Position numbers and translations under genes: made by a program. 48,467 nucleotides of DNA from Candidatus Sericytochromatia bacterium. Lineage in GTDB: Bacteria > Cyanobacteriota > Sericytochromatia > S15B-MN24 > UBA4093. Under the pieces are notes generated by a model. The model did not search any database. It was not told the origin of the DNA and saw only the letters and a program-made list of their open reading frames with translations. Where the stretch lies: the NCBI GenBank assembly GCA_036676985.1, contig JAKFBU010000063.1, positions 1-48,467 of the forward strand, written 5' to 3'. Below are positions 33,999 to 47,075 of the stretch, piece after piece (the stretch's first letter is position 1; each line of letters opens with the position of its first letter).

Positions 33999-35045
33999 GT
34001 GAAGACCATCCACTGGAACGACGGCGTCGTCGAACTGCTCGACCAGACGCGCCTGCCCCACGTGACCGAGACCGTGACCTGTCGGACCTATCAGGACATC
34101 GGTCGCGCCATCACCACCATGCAGGTGCGCGGCGCCCCCGCCATCGGCGTGGCGGCCGCCATGGGCCTGGCCCTCGCCGCCCAGGCGAGCACGGCCGCCG
34201 AGACCGCGCAGCTGATCGCCGAGCTCAAGGTCGCCGCCGACGAGCTGCGCGCGACGCGTCCCACGGCCGTCAACCTGGCATGGGCGCTGCAGCGCATGCT
34301 GACGGTCGCCGAGGAGAAGGCCCACATCGGCGCCGACGACCTCAAGCGCTACCTCGTACTCGAGGCCCAGGTCATCGCCCGCGAGGACGTCGAGATCAAC
34401 CAGGCCATCGGCCGCCACGGCGCCGCCCTCATCCAGGACGGCATGAACATCCTGACGCACTGCTCCACCGGTGCCTTGGCCACCGTCGACTACGGCACGG
34501 CGCTCGGCGTCATCCGCACGGCCCACGAGCAGGGCAAGAAGATCCACGTCTGGGTGGACGAAACGCGGCCCCGGCTGCAAGGTGCTCGTCTCAACGCCTG
34601 GGAGCTCAAACAGCTGGGCATCCCCTTCACGCTCATCTCGGACAACATGGCCGCCCACTTCATGCAGCGTGGCCAGGTGGACCTCGTCATCACCGGCGCG
34701 GACCGCATCGCCGCCAACGGCGACACCGCCAACAAGATCGGCACCTACGGCCTCTCGGTCCTGGCCCATGCCCACGGCATCCCCTTCTACATCGCGGCCC
34801 CGCTCTCGACGGTGGACCCCGAGATGCCCACCGGGGACCTCATCCCCATCGAGGACCGGGATCCGCGCGAGGTGACCGAGATCGACGGCCACCGGGTGGC
34901 CCCGGCCGAGGTGATGGTCGCCAACCCCTGCTTTGACGTGACGCCCGCCAAGTACATCCACGGCATCGTCACCGAGCGCGGCGTGCTGCGGGCCCCCTTC
35001 GACAAGGCCATCGACCAGGTGGTCGGGATCTTCCAGCGCGCCTAA
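33999..35045 (+). CDS. mtnA: S-methyl-5-thioribose-1-phosphate isomerase
   Basis: LLDQTRLP, VRGAPAIG, RPTAVNL, LTHC, DETRPRLQG, GADRIAANGDTANKIGTY, FDVTP. Confidence 0.96.
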   Translation: MKTIHWNDGVVELLDQTRLPHVTETVTCRTYQDIGRAITTMQVRGAPAIGVAAAMGLALAAQASTAAETAQLIAELKVAADELRATRPTAVNLAWALQRMLTVAEEKAHIGADDLKRYLVLEAQVIAREDVEINQAIGRHGAALIQDGMNILTHCSTGALATVDYGTALGVIRTAHEQGKKIHVWVDETRPRLQGARLNAWELKQLGIPFTLISDNMAAHFMQRGQVDLVITGADRIAANGDTANKIGTYGLSVLAHAHGIPFYIAAPLSTVDPEMPTGDLIPIEDRDPREVTEIDGHRVAPAEVMVANPCFDVTPAKYIHGIVTERGVLRAPFDKAIDQVVGIFQRA

Positions 35046-35060
35046 GCCTTCCCCTCCATG

Positions 35061-35088
35061 GGAGCGTCGGCGTTCACGCCGGCGCTCC
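35061..35088 (+). terminator. GC-rich hairpin after mtnA, possible terminator
   Basis: GGAGCGTCGGCG / CGCCGGCGCTCC stem; no clear U-tract. Confidence 0.45.
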
Positions 35089-35169
35089 TCGGCGTTTGGG
35101 CGACCTCCGACCGCGCCTTGCCCCGGGTCTTGCGGCCGCCTATAACAAGAGCACGGAAAGGAGGCCCCC

Positions 35170-35433
35170 ATGAACCTCTGGATCGAAGGCGTCGAAAAGG
35201 CCGTTCCCCTGCCGGAGACTCCGGCGGCACGGTTCGCCCTCTTGAAGGCGACGGTCCCCATGTTCCCCTGGATCCCGCTGGTGCCGGCCGCCCTCGTGAT
35301 CGGCACCTCGCTCGCGGCCCTGACGGTGGCCGTCCGCGCCAACCGGCGCGTGAAGGCCTTGGAGGCCGAGCTGTTCGAGGAAGAGACCCACGAGGCCCTT
35401 CACCAGCAGCCCCTGGAGACGATTAGCCCCTGA
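35170..35433 (+). CDS. Small single-pass membrane protein, hypothetical
   Basis: AAAGGAGG RBS; one hydrophobic helix then a short acidic coiled coil. Confidence 0.7.
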   Translation: MNLWIEGVEKAVPLPETPAARFALLKATVPMFPWIPLVPAALVIGTSLAALTVAVRANRRVKALEAELFEEETHEALHQQPLETISP

Positions 35434-35498
35434 TAACGGGTCGCGGGGCGGCGTGTTACAATGATCGACTGTGCGCGACTAGAAGAGGTACCTGCCGC

Positions 35499-36866
35499 AT
35501 GACCCCGAGCGACGCCGCCCTCAAGCGGCTCTACATCAAGACCCATGGCTGCCAGATGAACATGTCCGACTCCGAGAAGGTGGTCGGCATGCTCGCGCAG
35601 CAGGGCTACGCCCTCACCGACCAGGAAGACGACGCCGACGTGCTCATCGTCAACACCTGCTCGATCCGCGAGAAGGCGGAAGACAAGCTCTTCAGCCTCT
35701 TGGGCGAGTGGCGCGAGCTCAAGAAGCAGAAGCCGGACCTGCTCATCGGCGTGATGGGCTGCGTCGCCCAGCAGGAGAAGGACAAGATCCGCAAGCGGGT
35801 CCGCGACGTCGACGTGGTGGTCGGCACCCACAACTTCCACGAGCTGCCCGAGCTCATCGACGAGGTGGCGCGCACCAAGGCCCCCATCACCCGGATCGGC
35901 AACCTCAAGGCGCCCATCCCGGACGACCTGCCCACCACGCGCGAGGGCAAGTTCCACGCCTGGGTGCCCATCATCTACGGCTGCAGCTACTTCTGCACCT
36001 ACTGCATCGTCCCCTACACCCGCGGGCCCTACCAGAGCCGCAAGCCGGAGGCGATCGCCAAGGAGATCCGCGAGCTGGTCGCCGAGGGCTTCAAGGAGTT
36101 CACGCTCCTGGGCCAGACGGTCGATCGCTACGGCCAGGACCTGCCGGGCGACGAGCGGACGACGCTGGCGGCCCTCATGCGCCTCCTGTCGCCGATCCCG
36201 GGCGTCGAGCGGATCCGCTTCCTCACCTCGCACCCGCTCGACATGAGCGAAGAGCTGGTTGCTACCGTCGCCGAGCTCCCCAACGTCATGGAGTACTTCC
36301 ACTTCCCGATCCAGGCCGGCAGCGACAAGGTGCTCACGGAGATGAAGCGCCTCTACACCGTCGACCAGTACCGCGAGAAGGTCGCCATGATCCGGCGCCA
36401 CATCCCCGACGCGACCATCTCGGGCGACCTCATCGTCGGCTTCCCCGGCGAGACCGAGGAGGACTTCGTCGCGACGCTCCGGATCGTCGAGGAGATCGAG
36501 TTCGACTCGAACAACACGGCCTCCTACTCGATCCGCCCCTGGACGCCCGCGGGCAAGCGTGAGGACCAGCTGGACGAGGAGGTAAAGGCTGATCGCCTGA
36601 AGCGCCTCAACGAGGTGGTGGCGGAGACCGCCTTCCGCCGCAACCGGCGGCTGGTGGGCACCATCCAGGAGGTCCTGGTCGAGGGGCCGAGCTCCAAGAA
36701 CCCGGAGATCTTCCAGGGTCGGACCCGCGGCAACAAGATCTGCTACTTCCCGGGAAGTGCCGCTCTCGAGGGCCAGATCGTCAAGGTGGAGATCAACGAG
36801 GCGCGGCCCTTCACCCTGCGGGGCGAGATCGTGAAAGCGGTCGTGCCGCTGCAGATGGCGCTCTAG
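35499..36866 (+). CDS. miaB: tRNA-2-methylthio-N6-dimethylallyladenosine synthase
   Basis: THGCQMN, NTCSIREKAE, GCVAQ, CSYFCTYC, IVGFPGETEEDF, C-terminal TRAM domain. Confidence 0.96.
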   Translation: MTPSDAALKRLYIKTHGCQMNMSDSEKVVGMLAQQGYALTDQEDDADVLIVNTCSIREKAEDKLFSLLGEWRELKKQKPDLLIGVMGCVAQQEKDKIRKRVRDVDVVVGTHNFHELPELIDEVARTKAPITRIGNLKAPIPDDLPTTREGKFHAWVPIIYGCSYFCTYCIVPYTRGPYQSRKPEAIAKEIRELVAEGFKEFTLLGQTVDRYGQDLPGDERTTLAALMRLLSPIPGVERIRFLTSHPLDMSEELVATVAELPNVMEYFHFPIQAGSDKVLTEMKRLYTVDQYREKVAMIRRHIPDATISGDLIVGFPGETEEDFVATLRIVEEIEFDSNNTASYSIRPWTPAGKREDQLDEEVKADRLKRLNEVVAETAFRRNRRLVGTIQEVLVEGPSSKNPEIFQGRTRGNKICYFPGSAALEGQIVKVEINEARPFTLRGEIVKAVVPLQMAL

Positions 36867-38872: not shown

Positions 38873-39763
38873 TTACTCCTCCTCGTCCGGCACCTGCGGC
38901 GGAGGAGTCGCCGGACGCGGGGTCGGGCCCGTCGGACGGGGCGTCGGGGCGAGCGTCGGCGCCGGAGTGGGCGTCGTGGTGCCGCCCGCCAGGCGGTAGA
39001 GCTTGAAGCCGGTGAACTTGACCTGCGCGCCGTTGGAGGCGAGCGCCACCGTGCCGGCTCCGCTGATCAGGGGGTTGGTCACCGTGCCCTTGCGCTGGCC
39101 GTTGACATAGAGGGTCATGGTGTTGGCCGCGGTGTCCACGTCTGCGGTCCAGGTGATGGCCTGGCCCACGCCGCGGGGCGGATCGACGGTCTCGCCCCAC
39201 AGGCGGTTGGCGGTCGGCCAGGAGCCGCCCGGCAGCTGGCCGTTGCACACCCAGGCCTCCTGGAGTCTGGGGCCCGCCGAGGCGATGACGTAGTGGGTCG
39301 AGTCCTTGTAGAAGGGCATCAGGATCACCACCCCCGGATCCCGGGCCGGATCCGAGGCCATGATGCGGTAGGTCCAGCCCGTCACCTGGACCCGGTAGCG
39401 GGTTCCCGGGTTGCCCGTGTAGGCGCGGATCGACAGGCGGGTGCTCGAGCCCGGCTCCTCCTGGACGTAGGCGCCGCTCCCCGAGGTCCACTTGCCCGTC
39501 GCGAAGCTGCCGGTGGCGATGTCCGACTGGGAGACCGCGTCCCGGAAGGGCACCTCGGGCGTCGAGAAGTCGACGTCGGCAAGCTCCGTGCCCTCGGCCG
39601 CGGGGCCTGCCGGCAGCTCGGACGGCTCGCCCGTGTACTCCTTGGGAGGTGGCTCGGACGGCAGCCGGTTCTGGTAGGGGCCGCCCCCGCCCCCGCCCGG
39701 CGTACAACCGATGGCCAAGGCGGCGGTCACCGAGAGCGTCGCCCAAGTCATGCGACCCTTCAT
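38873..39763 (-). CDS. Hypothetical lipoprotein, predicted beta-sandwich (ConA-like)
   Basis: Lipobox AIG-C; MTLYVNG; Pro/Thr-rich tail. Confidence 0.75.
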   Translation of the reverse strand: MKGRMTWATLSVTAALAIGCTPGGGGGGPYQNRLPSEPPPKEYTGEPSELPAGPAAEGTELADVDFSTPEVPFRDAVSQSDIATGSFATGKWTSGSGAYVQEEPGSSTRLSIRAYTGNPGTRYRVQVTGWTYRIMASDPARDPGVVILMPFYKDSTHYVIASAGPRLQEAWVCNGQLPGGSWPTANRLWGETVDPPRGVGQAITWTADVDTAANTMTLYVNGQRKGTVTNPLISGAGTVALASNGAQVKFTGFKLYRLAGGTTTPTPAPTLAPTPRPTGPTPRPATPPPQVPDEEE

Positions 39764-39773
39764 GAGGCTCCTC

Positions 39774-40529
39774 CTACTTCTTCCAGACGATCTTGAAGTT
39801 GTCGAACTGGGCGTAGTTGCCGTTCGCGCCCAGGGCCACCCAGTGCGGATCGTGGTTGATCATGGGGATCTTCTTGGTGAGCTTCTTCTGGTCGTTGACG
39901 TAGACGGTGATCTCGTTGCTCTCGGTGTTGATGTCGGCCTTCCAGTTGAGGCTCCCGCTCGCCGTCAGGGGCGTGTCGAGGTACTGGTCGAAGAACTTGT
40001 TGTCCTGGCTCCATTCGGCGCCCGCGGGCGTCTGGCCGCTGACGACCCAGCCCTGGAGGCTGTTGGCCGTGGCCGAGAGCAGGATGTAGTTCTTGGGGTC
40101 CTTGTAGTAGGGCATAAGCGCCATGACACCCGTCGGATAGCCGTGGACCGCGGGGCTCTCGGCGTCCTTGGCCACCGAGGCGTCGACCGAGACGGTGTAG
40201 ACCTTGCCCGCCCGGCCGTCCTTGGTGCTGAAGGCGTCCCCGGTGTACTTCATGTGGTTGGCGAGGTTGTCCGTCGCCCCCATGGTCTGCTGAAGCTTGC
40301 CGTCCGCCACGGTCCAGGTCCCGGCCGCGAAGCCAGCGGCTTCACCCTTGGCGGCGTTCTCGAAGGGCATGGACGGGGTCTCGAAGGTCAAGAGGGTGGT
40401 CTTGCCGCCCGACGGCGCGGTCACGTACGAGCTCATGCCGGGAATGAACTCGGCTACGCCGCAGCCGCTCAGAAGCACACAAGCAAGAGCTAGCGCCACC
40501 CGGTTTCCGGGGCGTCCAGTAAGCAACAT
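39774..40529 (-). CDS. Hypothetical lipoprotein, paralogue of 38873-39763
   Basis: Lipobox LSG-C; shares GVxxLMPxYKD..Y...SA, W.AD..T..N...YVN and VAL..NG..A. Confidence 0.75.
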   Translation of the reverse strand: MLLTGRPGNRVALALACVLLSGCGVAEFIPGMSSYVTAPSGGKTTLLTFETPSMPFENAAKGEAAGFAAGTWTVADGKLQQTMGATDNLANHMKYTGDAFSTKDGRAGKVYTVSVDASVAKDAESPAVHGYPTGVMALMPYYKDPKNYILLSATANSLQGWVVSGQTPAGAEWSQDNKFFDQYLDTPLTASGSLNWKADINTESNEITVYVNDQKKLTKKIPMINHDPHWVALGANGNYAQFDNFKIVWKK

Positions 40530-40660: not shown

Positions 40661-41035
40661 CTAGGGAGCGTCTTGCGGCCGGGAGCGATCGCGCATCAGC
40701 ACGCTCCTCTCGACGTTGCTGGCACCCAGGCGCTGGACCACGAAGCGCTCGGCCGTTTCCGTGTCGAAGGGAGCCTGGCAAAAGAGGTCCAGGCTCAAGA
40801 AGGACTTCTCGGGGAAGGAATGGATGGAGAGGCGCCCGCCTTCGAGGAGCACCAGGCCGGAGATGCCCCAGTCCTCGGCGGTCTTGCCCGCGTAGCGAAA
40901 GACGTAAGGGGGCTTGAGGGGCGAGAGCCCGAGCGCGGCGGCAAGGTCTGTGAGCAGAGCCTTCAGGTGCTCGAAGTCCTCGAGCTTGGCGCGATCGCAG
41001 CCGTACCCGTCCAGCATGAGATGGGGGCTGTACAT
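40661..41035 (-). CDS. SpeD/AdoMetDC-like protein lacking the pyruvoyl-forming Ser (predicted inactive)
   Basis: PHLMLDGYGC, GISGLVLLEGGRLSIHSFPE, DLFC; AGGAGG RBS before ATG 41035. Confidence 0.8.
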   Translation of the reverse strand: MYSPHLMLDGYGCDRAKLEDFEHLKALLTDLAAALGLSPLKPPYVFRYAGKTAEDWGISGLVLLEGGRLSIHSFPEKSFLSLDLFCQAPFDTETAERFVVQRLGASNVERSVLMRDRSRPQDAP

Positions 41036-41160
41036 CGGAGCGCCTCCTGGTCGCAACGGGCTCGCCTTCCACGATTATACAGGGGCGGCCCGGCCGGCAA
41101 CCGCGCCCCGCGATGAGCCTACCGTGAGGAAGTCCCCGCCGGACCCGCCGCGAGAACGAC

Positions 41161-41188
41161 GACAGGCCCCGCCGGAGCGGGGCCTGTC
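41161..41188. terminator. Strong hairpin between the two speD-like genes
   Basis: GACAGGCCCCGC-CGGA-GCGGGGCCTGTC. Confidence 0.55.
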
Positions 41189-41205
41189 GGTGGACTGTCC
41201 GTGAA

Positions 41206-41670
41206 CTAGACGAGGGCGGCTTCCCGGACGGGAGGCACCATCGCCGTGTGCTCGCGGTGGATCGGGAACCGATCTCCCCGCTCGACGACCGTCACGCGGA
41301 GATCTTCTCCGCCGAAGGTGGCCTTGAAGTCTTCGACGACGAGTTCCGTGTCGAAGGGCAGGCAACTGAACACATCCACGAATGCGATGCCGACCGTGTT
41401 CGGATCATCCTGGCAGTGCATGTAAGGATACGTGTGGATACTGGCGTGGCTGGTAGTCAGCCCCACGATCCCCGTCACGCCGCTCTCGAGCGGATTGACG
41501 TTCACGAAATCGTGGCAGTAAGGGGGAAACAGCACGTCCATACCGAGCTTAGCAGGGAGCTCCTTGAGCCAGTTGTAAACCAACCGGAAGTCCGAGAGCT
41601 TCTCCGGGTCGCATCCGTAGGCGTCGATCGTCAGGTGCGGGCCATAGACCCCGCGAGCAAGGCGTTCCAA
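41206..41670 (-). CDS. speD: S-adenosylmethionine decarboxylase-family proenzyme (pyruvoyl-dependent)
   Basis: YGPHLTIDAYGC, GVTGIVGLTTSHASIHTYP, FVDVFSC; TTG start 10 nt after TAGGAGG. Confidence 0.82.
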   Translation of the reverse strand: MERLARGVYGPHLTIDAYGCDPEKLSDFRLVYNWLKELPAKLGMDVLFPPYCHDFVNVNPLESGVTGIVGLTTSHASIHTYPYMHCQDDPNTVGIAFVDVFSCLPFDTELVVEDFKATFGGEDLRVTVVERGDRFPIHREHTAMVPPVREAALV

Positions 41671-41851
41671 TTCAAGCAGCCCTCCTAAATCAGGGTGGTC
41701 GGCGAACCTACCGCGGGGTCCGTGACCTGGGTCATCAAAAGAGACGGCAACCGTCCTCCCGTGAGGGGTCGTCGTCGCGGTGGCGTAACAATACGCTGGG
41801 GGCATCGGCATCGTTGCCGAGGGGACGGCTCGAAAACTCGAGCAGAGCGCT

Positions 41852-43498: not shown

Positions 43499-43571
43499 GC
43501 GACCTTAGTTCAGTTGGTAGAACGGCGGTCTCCAAAACCGCATGTCGTGGGTTCGAGTCCTACAGGTCGCG
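43499..43571 (+). tRNA. tRNA-Trp(CCA)
   Basis: GCGACCT / AGGTCGC acceptor stem, anticodon arm GCGGT-CTCCAAA-ACCGC, T-loop TTCGAGT; canonical position before secE. Confidence 0.97.
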
Positions 43572-43698
43572 CCTCCTTCTGATACCAGTGACCGCACGGT
43601 CCACGCCTGGCAGGCCCCCAGGGGAACCTGGGAAGCTCCAGAGTGGACCGTCCGGTTTCTGGGACCAGAGGCCAGATTTCCGAGGAAGAGAGCACTCC

Positions 43699-43995
43699 GT
43701 GTCCGATCCGAACAAGACCTCCATCGAGGGACAAGAGAACCCGACCGTCGAAGATGAGCAGGACTCCAGCCTTTCGCTGAAGGGCGGCATGGCCATGCCC
43801 AGCATCGGCTGGGCCAAAGGCACCCAGAGCTTTCTGAGCGAGGTTCGCGCCGAGTTCAAGAAGATCTCCTGGCCGACCCGTCAGATGGTCATCACCGAGA
43901 CGGGCGTCGTGATCCTGGTGGTCACGTTCCTGACCCTCCTGATCGTCGCCTTAGACTGGATCTTCTCTATCCTTTCCAACCGGTTCCTGGTCTAA
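43699..43995 (+). CDS. secE: Preprotein translocase subunit SecE
   Basis: FLSEVRAEFKKISWPTR plus TM helix and LDWIF; start uncertain (GTG 43699). Confidence 0.92.
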   Translation: MSDPNKTSIEGQENPTVEDEQDSSLSLKGGMAMPSIGWAKGTQSFLSEVRAEFKKISWPTRQMVITETGVVILVVTFLTLLIVALDWIFSILSNRFLV

Positions 43996-44036
43996 GGACC
44001 GGTCCCTCTGCACGAATGAAGCATTAACGAGGACCC

Positions 44037-44558
44037 ATGAGCAGAAAGTGGTACGTCGTCAACACCTACTCCGGCTACGAGGACAAGGTTCGTGAGAACC
44101 TCCTGCGCCGGGCGGAGTCGATGGGCATGACCGACCGGATCTTCCACGTGGAAGTCCCCGAGGAGACGGTCGTCGAAATCAAGGAAGGCAAGCGCGTCGA
44201 GAAGCCACGCAAGGTCTTCCCCGGTTACGTGCTCGTCGAGATGGACATGGACGAGGCCTCCTGGCACGTGGTCCGCAACACCCCGGGCGTCACCTCGTTC
44301 GTCGGTTCGACGACCAAGCCCACGCCCCTGTCGGACCGCGAGGTCCGCAAGATCTTCAAGCGCGCCGCCACCAAGGCCAAGATCCAGATCGACCTGCACG
44401 TCGGCGAGCACGTCAAGGTCATCGGCGGCCCGTTCGCCGACTTCTCGGGCGACATCATCGAGATCAACCCCGAGAAGGGCAAGCTCAAGGTTTCCGTGTC
44501 GATCTTCGGTCGCGCCACCCCGGTGGAGCTCGAGTTCGGCCAGGTTCAAAAGGTCTAA
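44037..44558 (+). CDS. nusG: Transcription termination/antitermination factor NusG
   Basis: [48 protein letters not shown]. Confidence 0.98.
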
Positions 44559-44612
44559 ACGGACTAATCAGGCAGCCAGGGACCTGGCTGTATTCAAGGA
44601 GGTGAAACCCCA

Positions 44613-45038
44613 ATGGCGAAGAAGGTAACCGCCATGATCAAGCTGGCCCTGCCCGCAGGCAAGGCCAACCCGGCGCCCCCCGTGGGTCCCGCGCTCGGTC
44701 AGCACGGCGTCAACATCATGGAGTTCTGCAAGGCCTACAACGCGCAGACCGCGGACAAGGTCGGACAGGTCATCCCCGTCGAGATCACCGTCTACGAGGA
44801 TCGTTCGTTCACGTTCATCCTCAAGACCCCTCCGACCTCGGAGCTGATCAAGAAGGCGATCGGCGCTGAAAAGGGCTCCGGTACCCCCAACAAGGCGAAG
44901 ATCGGCACGATCACCATGGACCAGATCCGTGAGATCGCCCAGATCAAGATGCCCGACCTCAACTGCACCTCGGTGGAGTCGGCCATGAACATGGTCGCCG
45001 GCACCGCGGCGTCGATGGGCGTCACCGTCCAGCAGTAA
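44613..45038 (+). CDS. rplK: 50S ribosomal protein L11
   Basis: [26 protein letters not shown]. Confidence 0.98.
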
Positions 45039-45051
45039 CCCTAACGATTGC

Positions 45052-45084
45052 GTGGGAGGGGCCCTGCGGCCCCGTTCGCACCAC
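45052..45084 (+). promoter_or_regulatory. L1 autoregulatory binding site
   Basis: GTGGGAG...hairpin...ACCAC directly before the rplA SD. Confidence 0.7.
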
Positions 45085-45095
45085 AGGAGGAATCA

Positions 45096-45806
45096 ATGGC
45101 TAAGCTCAGCAAGCGCCAGAAGGCGATCTACGCCGAGGTCGACCTCGCCAAGGCCTACGGCCCGGCGGACGCCCTCAGCCTCTCGAAGAAGCTCGCGACC
45201 GCGAAGTTCGACGAGACCGTCGAGGCCCACTTCCGCCTCGGCATCAACGTCAAGCACGCCGACCAGCAGGTCCGCTCGACGGTCGTCCTGCCCGCCGGCA
45301 CCGGTAAGACGGTCCGCGTGGCGGTCATCGCCAAGGGCGACAAGCAGAAGGAAGCGGAAGCGGCCGGCGCCGACGTCGTCGGCGGCGAGGAGCTCATCCC
45401 CCGCATCCAGGAAGGCTGGATGGAGTTCGACATCCTGGTCGCCACCCCGGACATCATGGGTGCCCTGGGTCGCGTCGGTAAGGTGCTCGGCCCCCGCGGC
45501 CTGATGCCCTCGCCGAAGGCCGGCACGGTCACCTTCGAGATCGGCAAGGCCGTCAAGGAGTTCAAGGCCGGTAAGGTCGAGTTCCGCGCCGACAAGCAGG
45601 GCATCGTCCACGTGCCCATCGGCAAGGCCTCGTTCGCGCCCGAGGATCTCGGCCGCAACTTCGGCGCCCTCATGGACGCCATCAACAAGGCCAAGCCCGC
45701 CGCCGCCAAGGGCACCTACGTCAAGAGCGTCTACGTGACCTCGACCATGGGCCCCGGCATCAAGCTCGACACCGCGCGTGTCAACGAGGCGATCGCCCAG
45801 GCCTAA
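45096..45806 (+). CDS. rplA: 50S ribosomal protein L1
   Basis: [29 protein letters not shown]; ATG after AGGAGG. Confidence 0.98.
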
Positions 45807-45849
45807 GGCCAATTTGGGAAGCAGGGACCAAAATTCCTGCTTCCTAACC

Positions 45850-45878
45850 TTGCCTTAACCGGCCAAGTGCCGTATAAT
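45850..45878 (+). promoter_or_regulatory. Sigma70 promoter of rplJL
   Basis: TTGCCT-N17-TATAAT. Confidence 0.75.
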
Positions 45879-45911
45879 AGGCAGACAATTGAATCGAAAC
45901 GTGTCTCCCAC

Positions 45912-46052
45912 GCCCAAGACAGCAGGGATCCCCCCGGGGATTTAATGGTCTACCCCCTGCCGAGGTAGCGGATGAGCTTCGACCCAGAGTTTCCCTTCAG
46001 TGGGACCCTTTCGGACCGGGCTCCTGCCTCCTCAGGCGGGAGCCCGGTTCGC
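45912..46052 (+). ncRNA. Ribosomal protein L10 leader
   Basis: CCAAGACAGCAGG...TTAA...CCTGCCGAGG core followed by a GC-rich hairpin upstream of rplJ. Confidence 0.8.
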
Positions 46053-46087
46053 TTCTCGAAGCTCACCCGAAGGAGGTGAATACAACA

Positions 46088-46621
46088 ATGCCGACAAAAG
46101 AGAAAAAGCAGCAGACCGTCGCCGAGCTGCGGGACATCTTCGACCGCGCCCAGGTGGCGATCGTCACGGATTACCGCGGTCTGACCGTCAAGGAGATCAC
46201 CGACCTCCGCCGCCGCCTGCAGAAGGTGGGTGGTGAACTGACCGTCTCCAAGAACACGCTCATCGAGCTCGTGACGCGCGACAACGATCAGTGGAAGGCC
46301 ATGGCGCCTTTCCTGGCCGGCCCCACCGCGCTCGCGATCGGGTTCGACGATCCCGTCGCGGCCGCCAAGGCCGTCGCGGACTTCGCCAAGGAGAAGCGCA
46401 AGGTCGAGATCAAGGTCCGCGGTGGCGTGCTCGAGGGTAAGGCCCTCAGCGCCGATGCCGTCAAGGATCTGGCCAGCATGCCGAGCAAGGAGGTCCTCCT
46501 GGGCCGCATGCTCGGAAGCCTGCAGAGCCCCGCTCAGAACTTCGCTTCGGTGCTCTCGGCCGTCTCGCGCAACCTCGTCTACGCCGTGGACGCGGTCCGT
46601 CGCCAGAAGGAAGGCGCGTAA
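46088..46621 (+). CDS. rplJ: 50S ribosomal protein L10
   Basis: DYRGLTVKEITDLRR, KNTL, GPTALA, LASMPSKE. Confidence 0.97.
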   Translation: MPTKEKKQQTVAELRDIFDRAQVAIVTDYRGLTVKEITDLRRRLQKVGGELTVSKNTLIELVTRDNDQWKAMAPFLAGPTALAIGFDDPVAAAKAVADFAKEKRKVEIKVRGGVLEGKALSADAVKDLASMPSKEVLLGRMLGSLQSPAQNFASVLSAVSRNLVYAVDAVRRQKEGA

Positions 46622-46688
46622 GCGCTGCTTCCCCCAACCAAGTTGTATCAGCCGGAGAACCGGCCCACTTTATAAGGAGAACACGTAA

Positions 46689-47075
<387 letters not shown>

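Follow-up and report, generated by a model that had tools for sequence, protein, structure and literature searches.

The window analysed here, i.e., the whole stretch of 48,467 nucleotides of contig JAKFBU010000063.1 from the soil bacterium Candidatus Sericytochromatia bacterium (assembly GCA_036676985.1), encodes two adjacent proteins with the fold of SpeD, the S-adenosylmethionine decarboxylase (AdoMetDC) of class 1b. P0002, the product of the upstream gene, retains the self-processing site of this family. P0001, the product of the downstream gene, is very probably a conserved pseudoenzyme, namely a non-processing protein that has kept the class 1b SpeD fold. Furthermore, it is tentatively proposed that P0001 acts as the inactive half of a heterodimer with P0002 in which a single active site would be functional.

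Sequence, fold and conservation of P0001

Based on profile scores, both proteins are members of the class 1b SpeD (AdoMetDC) fold, since P0001 (74.3 bits) and P0002 (72.1 bits) exceed the curated PF02675 cut-off of 25 bits. Both remain below the cut-off of 75.65 for the NCBIfam AdoMetDC equivalog TIGR03330 (51.6 for P0001; 48.5 to 49.7 for P0002), and neither combines a match to this model with linkage to a spermidine synthase gene. The two proteins share 32% identity (40/124 residues, E 4e-21). An earlier inspection of the DNA, here called the sequence-only reading, had described the region 40661–41670 as two adjacent, co-oriented genes of the AdoMetDC fold, and this range coincides with the exact ends of the two coding sequences.

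P0002 reads GLTTSHASIHTYP and FSC, and thereby retains the pyruvoyl-forming Ser (TTSH) and the catalytic Cys. P0001 reads LLEGGRLSIHSFP and FCQ, with LLEGGRLSIH at the former processing site. In the numbering of the Thermotoga maritima enzyme, which is used for Glu62, Ser63, His64, His68, Cys83 and Ser55 throughout, P0001 carries Gly in place of Glu62, Gly67 in place of the pyruvoyl residue Ser63, Arg in place of His64 and Gln87 in place of Cys83. The equivalents of His68 (His72) and Ser55 (Ser59) are retained; P0002 keeps Ser63, Cys83 and His68. Moreover, the RGxxFP motif and its tail are absent from P0001. The sequence-only reading had recognized the intact cleavage site of the first gene and the missing pyruvoyl Ser and His of the second one, which is confirmed here; the additional loss of the catalytic Cys83 had gone unremarked.

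The structural model of P0001 was confident, with a predicted local distance difference test (pLDDT) value of 91.3 and a predicted template modelling (pTM) score of 0.81, and shows the alpha-beta protomer fold of AdoMetDC. Its best structural matches are the T. maritima AdoMetDC entries 1vr7, 1tmi and 1tlu, with template modelling (TM) scores of 0.80–0.85 and root mean square deviations of 1.8–2.1 Å. In this model, Gly66-Gly67 is located at the turn between strands 57–64 and 67–74, where live enzymes cleave.

The nine cluster representatives closest to P0001 are 61–100% identical to it, eight of them consisting of 124 aa and one of 128 aa. All nine carry L[E/K]GGRLS[I/V/L]H, and the Cys is present in none. 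With cluster members added, this group (hereafter the dead clade) comprises 18 sequences, 61–89% identical to P0001, and GGR as well as the C-terminal DAP were found in 18/18. Reading frames are likewise intact in all 18 (17 of 124 aa, one of 128 aa), with identical termini. Ser59 and His72 are invariant in the complete set, as is the ETAERF helix. The position of Cys83 is occupied by Q, K, A, R, H or G, and Trp56, a former pocket residue, also varies. Hits beyond the dead clade, at ≤49% identity, represent intact proteins, termed clade I, featuring AESHISIH, FSC and RGxEFP.

Within the 160 loci retrieved with P0001 as query, 159 contain a single intact gene (158 with AESH, one with TESH), and an EGGR gene just downstream of a TTSH gene was encountered in the sister species (genome G001) only. 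The scan of genome contigs for dead-clade loci also returned the sister species only, and a scan of metagenome contigs yielded 80 loci, all of the intact kind and at ≤49% identity, with no further dead-clade locus. A separate observation concerns P0014, a clade I protein 49% identical to P0001 that reads TTEGHVTIH and is devoid of the Cys. Because it is nested among intact clade I sequences in the tree, it appears to have lost the Ser independently.

Comparison of the window's genome (G000) with G001 revealed 35.5 synonymous changes at 92.5 sites and 25.5 non-synonymous changes at 279.5 sites for P0001, corresponding to a ratio of non-synonymous to synonymous rates (omega) of 0.18 (bootstrap 0.09–0.32; Fisher p 7e-10). 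The neighbouring glycosyltransferase gene (GT2) and P0002 showed omega values of 0.14 and 0.10 in the same comparison, and values >1 were obtained in the wrong reading frames. The sequence-only reading had asked for a test of purifying selection on the Ser-less copy, and had named orthologues with retained E-S-H, a sign of recent decay, and an omega near 1 as observations that would speak against its idea. Neither was found: the Ser is missing from the whole clade, and recent decay was rejected based on the omega value and on the GGR present in every member.

P0002 and the canonical SpeD of the genome

P0002 possesses a TTSH processing site, the Cys within FSC, an insert of 9 residues behind YPYM and the motif RGxRFP. 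It belongs to a group here termed the T clade; Ser, His and Cys do not vary in the alignment, and P0002 probably represents a self-processing pyruvoyl decarboxylase. The T clade is tight, comprising 23 homologues of P0002 at 67–98% identity, and the next sequences follow at ≤47%. A Thr-Ser processing site is common among related live clades. A longer open reading frame of P0002 extends to position 41811.

The assumption of the sequence-only reading that the first gene is the organism's SpeD had to be abandoned. A third PF02675 gene of the genome, located on contig C37, scores 149.5 bits, reads AESHLTIHTWPE and reaches 154.1 with TIGR03330, above the cut-off. A spermidine synthase gene (PF01564, 208.9 bits) directly follows it. 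P0002 as the housekeeping SpeD was therefore rejected, given this canonical speD-speE pair on another contig and its own score below the TIGR03330 cut-off. Furthermore, the T-clade gene is the sole PF02675 gene in five genomes of two sister genera (G003, G004, G006, G007 and G009; 81–100% completeness), and PF01564 was not found in these five genomes. Since they carry the T-clade gene in this setting, the T clade is a SpeD homologue uncoupled from spermidine synthase.

In the account of Li et al. 2023 (PMC10407285), an anomalous speD in a genome without canonical arginine or ornithine decarboxylase provides a clue to the substrate. This rule is not applicable to P0002 because a PF01276 decarboxylase is encoded in all five genomes tested. 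Each of these genomes also harbours 2–3 arginase-family genes; PF04371 and PF01862 were not found in the tested genomes, and the sole PF02784 match in G007 is LysA. In G000, contig C56 (232522–233058) contains a second PF01564 match within a frame of 503 aa, and contig C27 (28661–29392) contains a LysA-like match to PF02784 that does not reach the lysA cut-off, within a frame of 1024 aa; both may be further polyamine-related enzymes. As an additional observation, the nucleotide identity of P0002 between the two species is 93.7%, compared to 83–84% for GT2 and P0001. Its synonymous divergence (dS) is 0.21 as opposed to 0.54–0.57 for GT2 and P0001, and its GC content at third codon positions is 0.76 as opposed to 0.85–0.95.

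Origin of P0001 and co-inheritance with P0002

An arrangement consisting of rplL-J-A-K, nusG and secE, then the divergent GT2 gene and then a SpeD homologue is conserved across the order. At this locus, an intact clade I gene resides in the sister-family genomes G012, G016 and G018, and a T-clade gene in the sister genera (G003, G004 and G007). In G004 and G007, the T-clade gene is followed by genes for proteins of 252 aa and about 320 aa and a UDPGP gene, as in the window. Searching the three loci with lone T-clade genes (G003, G004, G007) by means of tblastn revealed no remnant of P0001.

In the phylogenetic tree, the dead clade is monophyletic (100/100) with a stem of 1.56 changes per site and shares a polytomy with clade I. 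The T clade (100/100) is placed together with other live clades (97/95). A topology constraining the T and dead clades into one clade was rejected in the approximately unbiased (AU) test (p=0.0009). An origin of P0001 as tandem duplicate of P0002 was discarded based on the tree placement and this test. Because of the shared locus, the tree and the AU rejection, P0001 is, as far as its sequence tells, a resident clade I ‘AESH’ SpeD-like gene turned pseudoenzyme. In public records, the nearest intact clade I proteins appear under the name Candidatus Eisenbacteria, and metagenome-assembled genomes of the sister genera under Stenomitos sp. and Pantanalinema sp. (names as recorded).

P0001-like and P0002-like proteins come from contigs of matching length in 11 cases, including the window and the sister species; co-location is inferred for this set from the identical lengths, the DNA having been read for 2/11. 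Distances within the two protein sets correlate (Mantel r 0.86, p 0.0005). The sequence-only reading had asked for conserved synteny, and co-inheritance of P0001 with its active neighbour agrees with it. Moreover, P0011, the most divergent dead copy (61%), is paired with a T protein whose closest neighbour in the tree comes from G004, a genome without a dead gene, which suggests that the pairing is old and that the dead gene was lost more than once.

Intergenic region between P0002 and P0001

The two coding sequences are separated by a spacer of 170 nt with a hairpin in between and do not form one polypeptide. The hairpin is present in the computed fold and preserved in the sister species, in contrast to the intergenic DNA on either side of it. 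Its match to the terminator end of the Rfam model RsmY remains below threshold. The sequence CCTGTATAATCGT around the -10-like box is unchanged in G001 although a 63-nt indel lies immediately upstream, and G001, with GTG as start codon, has kept the ribosome-binding site AGGAGG. Accordingly, the hairpin, TATAAT and AGGAGG represent conserved islands in an otherwise diverged spacer (G000 vs. G001). The -35 element upstream of P0001 is poor (TTGCCG, 15-nt spacer), the consensus promoter scan returned 0 sites, and the terminator scan did not call the hairpin. Screening with Rfam revealed only a tRNA-Trp above threshold and no riboswitch. The intact frame, good ribosome-binding site and own TATAAT noted for P0001 by the sequence-only reading are thus present and conserved, with the reservation that the promoter scan was silent and the -35 element is poor. 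Judged from these elements, separate control of P0001 expression is plausible. Contigs of four RNA runs (three studies) span 41227–41738 only, i.e., P0002; such contigs cannot show absence and have no bearing on the expression of P0001.

Dead SpeD-fold domains in other proteins

A profile search of 1.84 billion representatives was carried out with the dead-clade profile, and 147 of the 150 listed proteins were read. These contain 164 SpeD-fold domains, and 17 of them are two-domain proteins; the list is biased to dead-type sequences because it was drawn with the dead-clade profile. Among the fused dead domains (n=15), Ser or Thr at position 55, His68 and Gly at position 63 were each found in 15/15, and Cys83 in 0/15. 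In 14/15 fusions, P0001 obtains a better score with the dead half than with the live one.

The 17 SpeD-SpeD proteins (P0223–P0330) have lengths of 245–278 aa. In 14/17, the dead domain (mostly ‘xGGH’, without Cys) is the N-terminal one and the live domain (AESH or AQSH, FSC) the C-terminal one; P0266 shows the reverse order (1/17), and Ser is present in both halves in 2/17. In the fusion example described in PMC10407285, the dead domain is located at the C-terminus.

Single-domain Ser-less proteins of the SpeD fold also number 17 among the 147 representatives (P0197–P0339), 16 of them being <200 aa and one 217 aa long. They carry G, A, V or T at the Ser position, the His68 equivalent in 16/17 and the Cys in 3/17, and suggest that the free-standing dead subunit could be a recurrent bacterial strategy. 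One protein, P0198 (HGRLSLH, ETAERLIKERLGA), groups with the dead clade of the window in a quick tree, with a support of 100 in the Shimodaira–Hasegawa-like approximate likelihood ratio test (SH-aLRT). The grouping of all dead lineages in this tree is weak (SH-aLRT 81) and was not relied on.

Proposed heterodimer and alternative explanations

The combination of a live unit with the Ser (P0002) and a dead unit keeping the Ser55 and His68 equivalents (P0001) corresponds to the make-up of dead/live two-unit proteins, the two units being placed here in two polypeptides instead of one. The clade I resident lost the residues acting in its own chain (Glu62, Ser63, His64 and Cys83) but kept the fold as well as Ser59 and His72. 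A second pyruvoyl enzyme of another SpeD subfamily (P0002, T clade) is encoded immediately upstream in this genus. In the proposed mechanism, P0001 and P0002 would pair in the manner of class 1b enzymes, which dimerise face to face and have their active sites at the interface; one complete site would result, for which the pyruvoyl group and Cys would be provided by P0002 and Ser and His by P0001. The second site would be dead and plugged by the invariant Gly-Gly-Arg turn. Such a heterodimer would represent the unfused, separately transcribed equivalent of the dead half in class 2 AdoMetDC and in bacterial dead/live fusions, and the level of P0001 would tune the activity or the pocket of P0002.

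We take His68 of T. maritima to be the equivalent of human His243. As described in PMC3975893, human Ser229 and His243 serve Ser68, and Ser55 of T. maritima is the equivalent of Ser229. Bacterial half-enzymes build the alpha-beta-beta-alpha sandwich by pairing of their sheet faces, according to the description in PMC5201418. In the P0001 model, Ser59 and His72 are each separated from the turn of the same chain by about 7 residues of strand, so that they could, according to this model, only reach the turn of a partner. We infer that P0001 and P0002 form a heterodimer, that Ser59 and His72 act across its interface and that activity may be affected.

Complex prediction for P0001 and P0002 resulted in an ipSAE interface score of 0.55 (runs 0.60, 0.55 and 0.55) compared to 0.01 for the best control, with contact agreement between runs of at least 86% and partner pLDDT of at least 80. 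The mark applied to this score is reached by 116/157 solved complexes and 2/215 mismatched pairs; at 0.60 or under lie only 18/157 solved complexes, yet both passing mismatches. Moreover, the score may come from likeness to solved structures because AdoMetDC homodimers have been solved. The structure prediction proposed in the sequence-only reading thus lends weak support to pairing and leaves hetero- and homodimers unseparated.

Several observations weigh against the proposed heterodimer. The complex score just mentioned cannot tell it from homodimers, and structural demands may instead account for the retention of Ser59 and His72. Compatibility of the interfaces is not a given, as the two proteins belong to different subfamilies (32% identity, joint clade rejected). 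A search for longer forms revealed neither a protein in which a T-clade and a dead domain are fused nor a longer fused relative of P0001, which is weak evidence. The hairpin and the separate promoter argue against stoichiometric co-expression, and the P0001 protein evolves 3.7x faster than P0002. Furthermore, P0002 orthologues (about 78–82% identical) occur without P0001 in 5/5 genomes of the two sister genera. T proteins with and without a dead neighbour show consistent differences at 4 peripheral positions only, and P0002 therefore does not look dependent on P0001. Finally, P0001 resides at the ancestral clade I locus, so that history alone could account for the adjacency of the two genes.

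These points also bear on the ‘prozyme’ system that the sequence-only reading had suspected, i.e., an enzyme activated by its dead paralogue. A conserved dead copy with its own -10 box and ribosome-binding site is part of this idea that persists; the copy is not a duplicate, and orthologues of the neighbour stand alone. Since they do so without compensating change, obligate dependence of the prozyme type is unlikely.

The explanation coming next after the heterodimer, which we regard as rather unlikely, assumes that P0001 acts independently as a non-catalytic and probably homodimeric protein that has acquired a separate new role, e.g., in ligand binding, scaffolding or regulation, and that it lies beside P0002 via the ancestral locus only. 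The ancestral clade I position of the gene with its promoter-like box and ribosome-binding site behind a hairpin, P0002 orthologues managing without P0001 in sister genera, and the 17 single-domain Ser-less proteins described above fit this assumption. In addition, the invariant GGR, ETAERF helix and DAP look like new constraint and not only loss. However, the former pocket residues have been released, as Trp56 and the Cys83 position vary, which speaks against a sensor using the old pocket, and P0001 co-diverges with the T-clade neighbour over 11 contigs. Moreover, retention of the cross-interface residues together with loss of the same-chain residues is the pattern of dead domains tied to a live domain.

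Partnership of P0001 with the canonical SpeD of the other contig, by which it would modulate the true AdoMetDC activity, is considered improbable. Among 10 genomes of the family, only the genus with P0001 (G000 and G001) combines speD-speE with the T clade, and genera with the T-clade gene only are devoid of speE, canonical speD and P0001. This association, however, derives from a single genus, and P0001 is distant from the canonical SpeD (E 1.7e-8, 32% identity) and not linked to speD-speE.

Very improbable is the interpretation of P0001 as a decaying, functionless relic of a displaced resident enzyme, for which the loss of four catalytic or processing residues and of the RGxxFP motif and tail, the long stem of the clade, the fast evolution relative to the neighbour and its absence from sister genera might be cited, but which conflicts with the low omega, the intact frames with identical termini and GGR down to 61% identity, the conserved ribosome-binding site and -10 box and the confidently predicted fold. 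Hardly any weight is given to the idea that P0001 is still an enzyme of other chemistry (e.g., with processing at Ser70 or cofactor-independent activity), which would agree with the invariant Ser70 and His72 and with the migrated catalytic residues that pseudoenzymes sometimes show as described in PMC10211241; yet intact relatives conserve Ser70 to the same extent without using it for processing, it is located mid-strand and not at the turn of the model, and the Cys and pocket Trp have been released.

The preferred reading remains the P0001–P0002 heterodimer. With somewhat greater reserve, we propose in detail a free-standing two-gene live/dead SpeD heterodimer whose dead subunit stems from another subfamily. 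This subunit would contribute Ser and His across the interface as well as a portion of the pocket. A hybrid enzyme with one active site would result, and the separately controlled amount of the dead subunit would determine how active it is or which substrates it accepts.

Genomic context of the gene pair

Features of the gene pair and its surroundings are compiled in Table 1. Directly downstream of P0001, two adjacent genes do not match any Pfam family; genes of similar sizes come after the lone T-clade gene in G004 and G007. Based on its Pfam match alone, the IF-2B-family gene is a candidate methylthioribose-1-phosphate isomerase gene. This enzyme belongs to methionine salvage, in which a by-product of aminopropyl transfer is recycled. 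Open reading frames similar in size and order to the IF-2B-family and MiaB-like genes were also observed beside the T-clade gene in G007.

Table 1. Features of the P0002–P0001 locus (positions refer to the window).
Feature	Position	Strand	Remarks
IF-2B-family gene and MiaB-like radical SAM gene	33999-36866		4-6 kb from the gene pair
Two adjacent genes (251 + 296 aa)	38873-40529	minus	no Pfam match; directly downstream of P0001
P0001	40661-41035	minus	124 aa from the ATG after AGGAGG; SpeD-fold pseudoenzyme (very probable)
AGGAGG ribosome-binding site	41043-41048	minus	7 nt before the P0001 ATG (41035)
TATAAT -10-like box	41074-41079	minus	upstream of P0001
GC-rich hairpin	41160-41189	minus	13-bp stem, 4-nt loop; 17 nt after the P0002 stop; terminator-like, U-poor tail
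P0002	41206-41670	minus	154 aa in public gene calls; SpeD-fold, T clade
tRNA-Trp, secE, nusG, rplK, rplA, rplJ, rplL cluster	43499-47075	divergent from the GT2-SpeD genes	junction conserved across the order

Comparison with known systems

Dead partners of the AdoMetDC fold are known in two forms, namely the prozyme of trypanosomatids, encoded by a separate gene, and the fused domain of the eukaryotic enzyme and of V. vadensis-type fusions. The closest case found described is the SpeD-SpeDC fusion of the V. vadensis type with its degraded second domain (Li, Liang, Phillips and Michael, JBC 2023, PMC10407285), which is bacterial like the pair studied here; in the account given there, it supports a model for how class 2 AdoMetDC of eukaryotes originated. 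In contrast to this fusion, the window encodes the two units in two genes, between which a hairpin, a separate -10 box and a ribosome-binding site are located. Moreover, the live unit does not represent a bona fide AdoMetDC neighbouring speE, and the dead unit, resident at the locus, originates from a different subfamily.

Eukaryotic class 2 AdoMetDC is described in PMC5201418 as a beta-sandwich in which two SpeD-like halves are joined face to face and only one pyruvoyl site exists, which is the same layout as proposed for P0001 and P0002. Its dead half supplies Ser229 and His243 to Ser68 of the live half, as stated in PMC3975893, and P0001 likewise keeps the Ser55 and His68 equivalents without Ser63 and Cys83. 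Unlike P0001 and P0002, the eukaryotic enzyme is one polypeptide, and no sequence kinship beyond the fold is detectable. The putrescine site lies in the C-terminal (dead) half of the eukaryotic AdoMetDC. Another non-catalytic unit is the N-terminal domain of spermine synthase, which mediates dimerisation. In the human enzyme (PDB 3c6k), this AdoMetDC-like domain represents a SpeD-fold unit in a protein of other activity, and the P0001 model matches it with a Foldseek E-value of 1.3e-3. This match is far weaker (TM 0.45–0.49) than those to T. maritima AdoMetDC, and the domain in 3c6k is fused to an aminopropyltransferase.

The trypanosomatid prozyme (Volkov et al., eLife 2016, PMC5201418) is likewise a dead paralogue with its own gene and scope for separate control, and pairing with an active enzyme of the same fold is proposed here as for the prozyme. 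As described in the same article, the prozyme arose from its partner by recent duplication and forms an edge-to-edge dimer with a complete enzyme of two halves, which is autoinhibited when alone, whereas P0001 did not arise by duplication of P0002, and orthologues of P0002 occur singly in other genomes. By analogy, P0001 appears to have more in common with the dead half of the eukaryotic enzyme or of AdoMetDC fusions than with the prozyme, which is the looser analogy. Full-text literature searches returned no separately encoded dead SpeD-fold protein in bacteria; the supplements of PMC10407285 lay outside this search and may list cases.

Should P0001 not bind P0002, the clade would still represent a conserved pseudoenzyme. 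If the proposed heterodimer is correct, many ‘S-adenosylmethionine decarboxylase’ annotations in metagenomes would refer to proteins that are neither AdoMetDC nor enzymes. Furthermore, the pair would then provide a tractable two-gene dead/live SpeD unit of the kind that the proposed route to the eukaryotic enzyme requires, featuring a pseudoenzyme that was recruited from a different subfamily and not as a duplicate of its partner.

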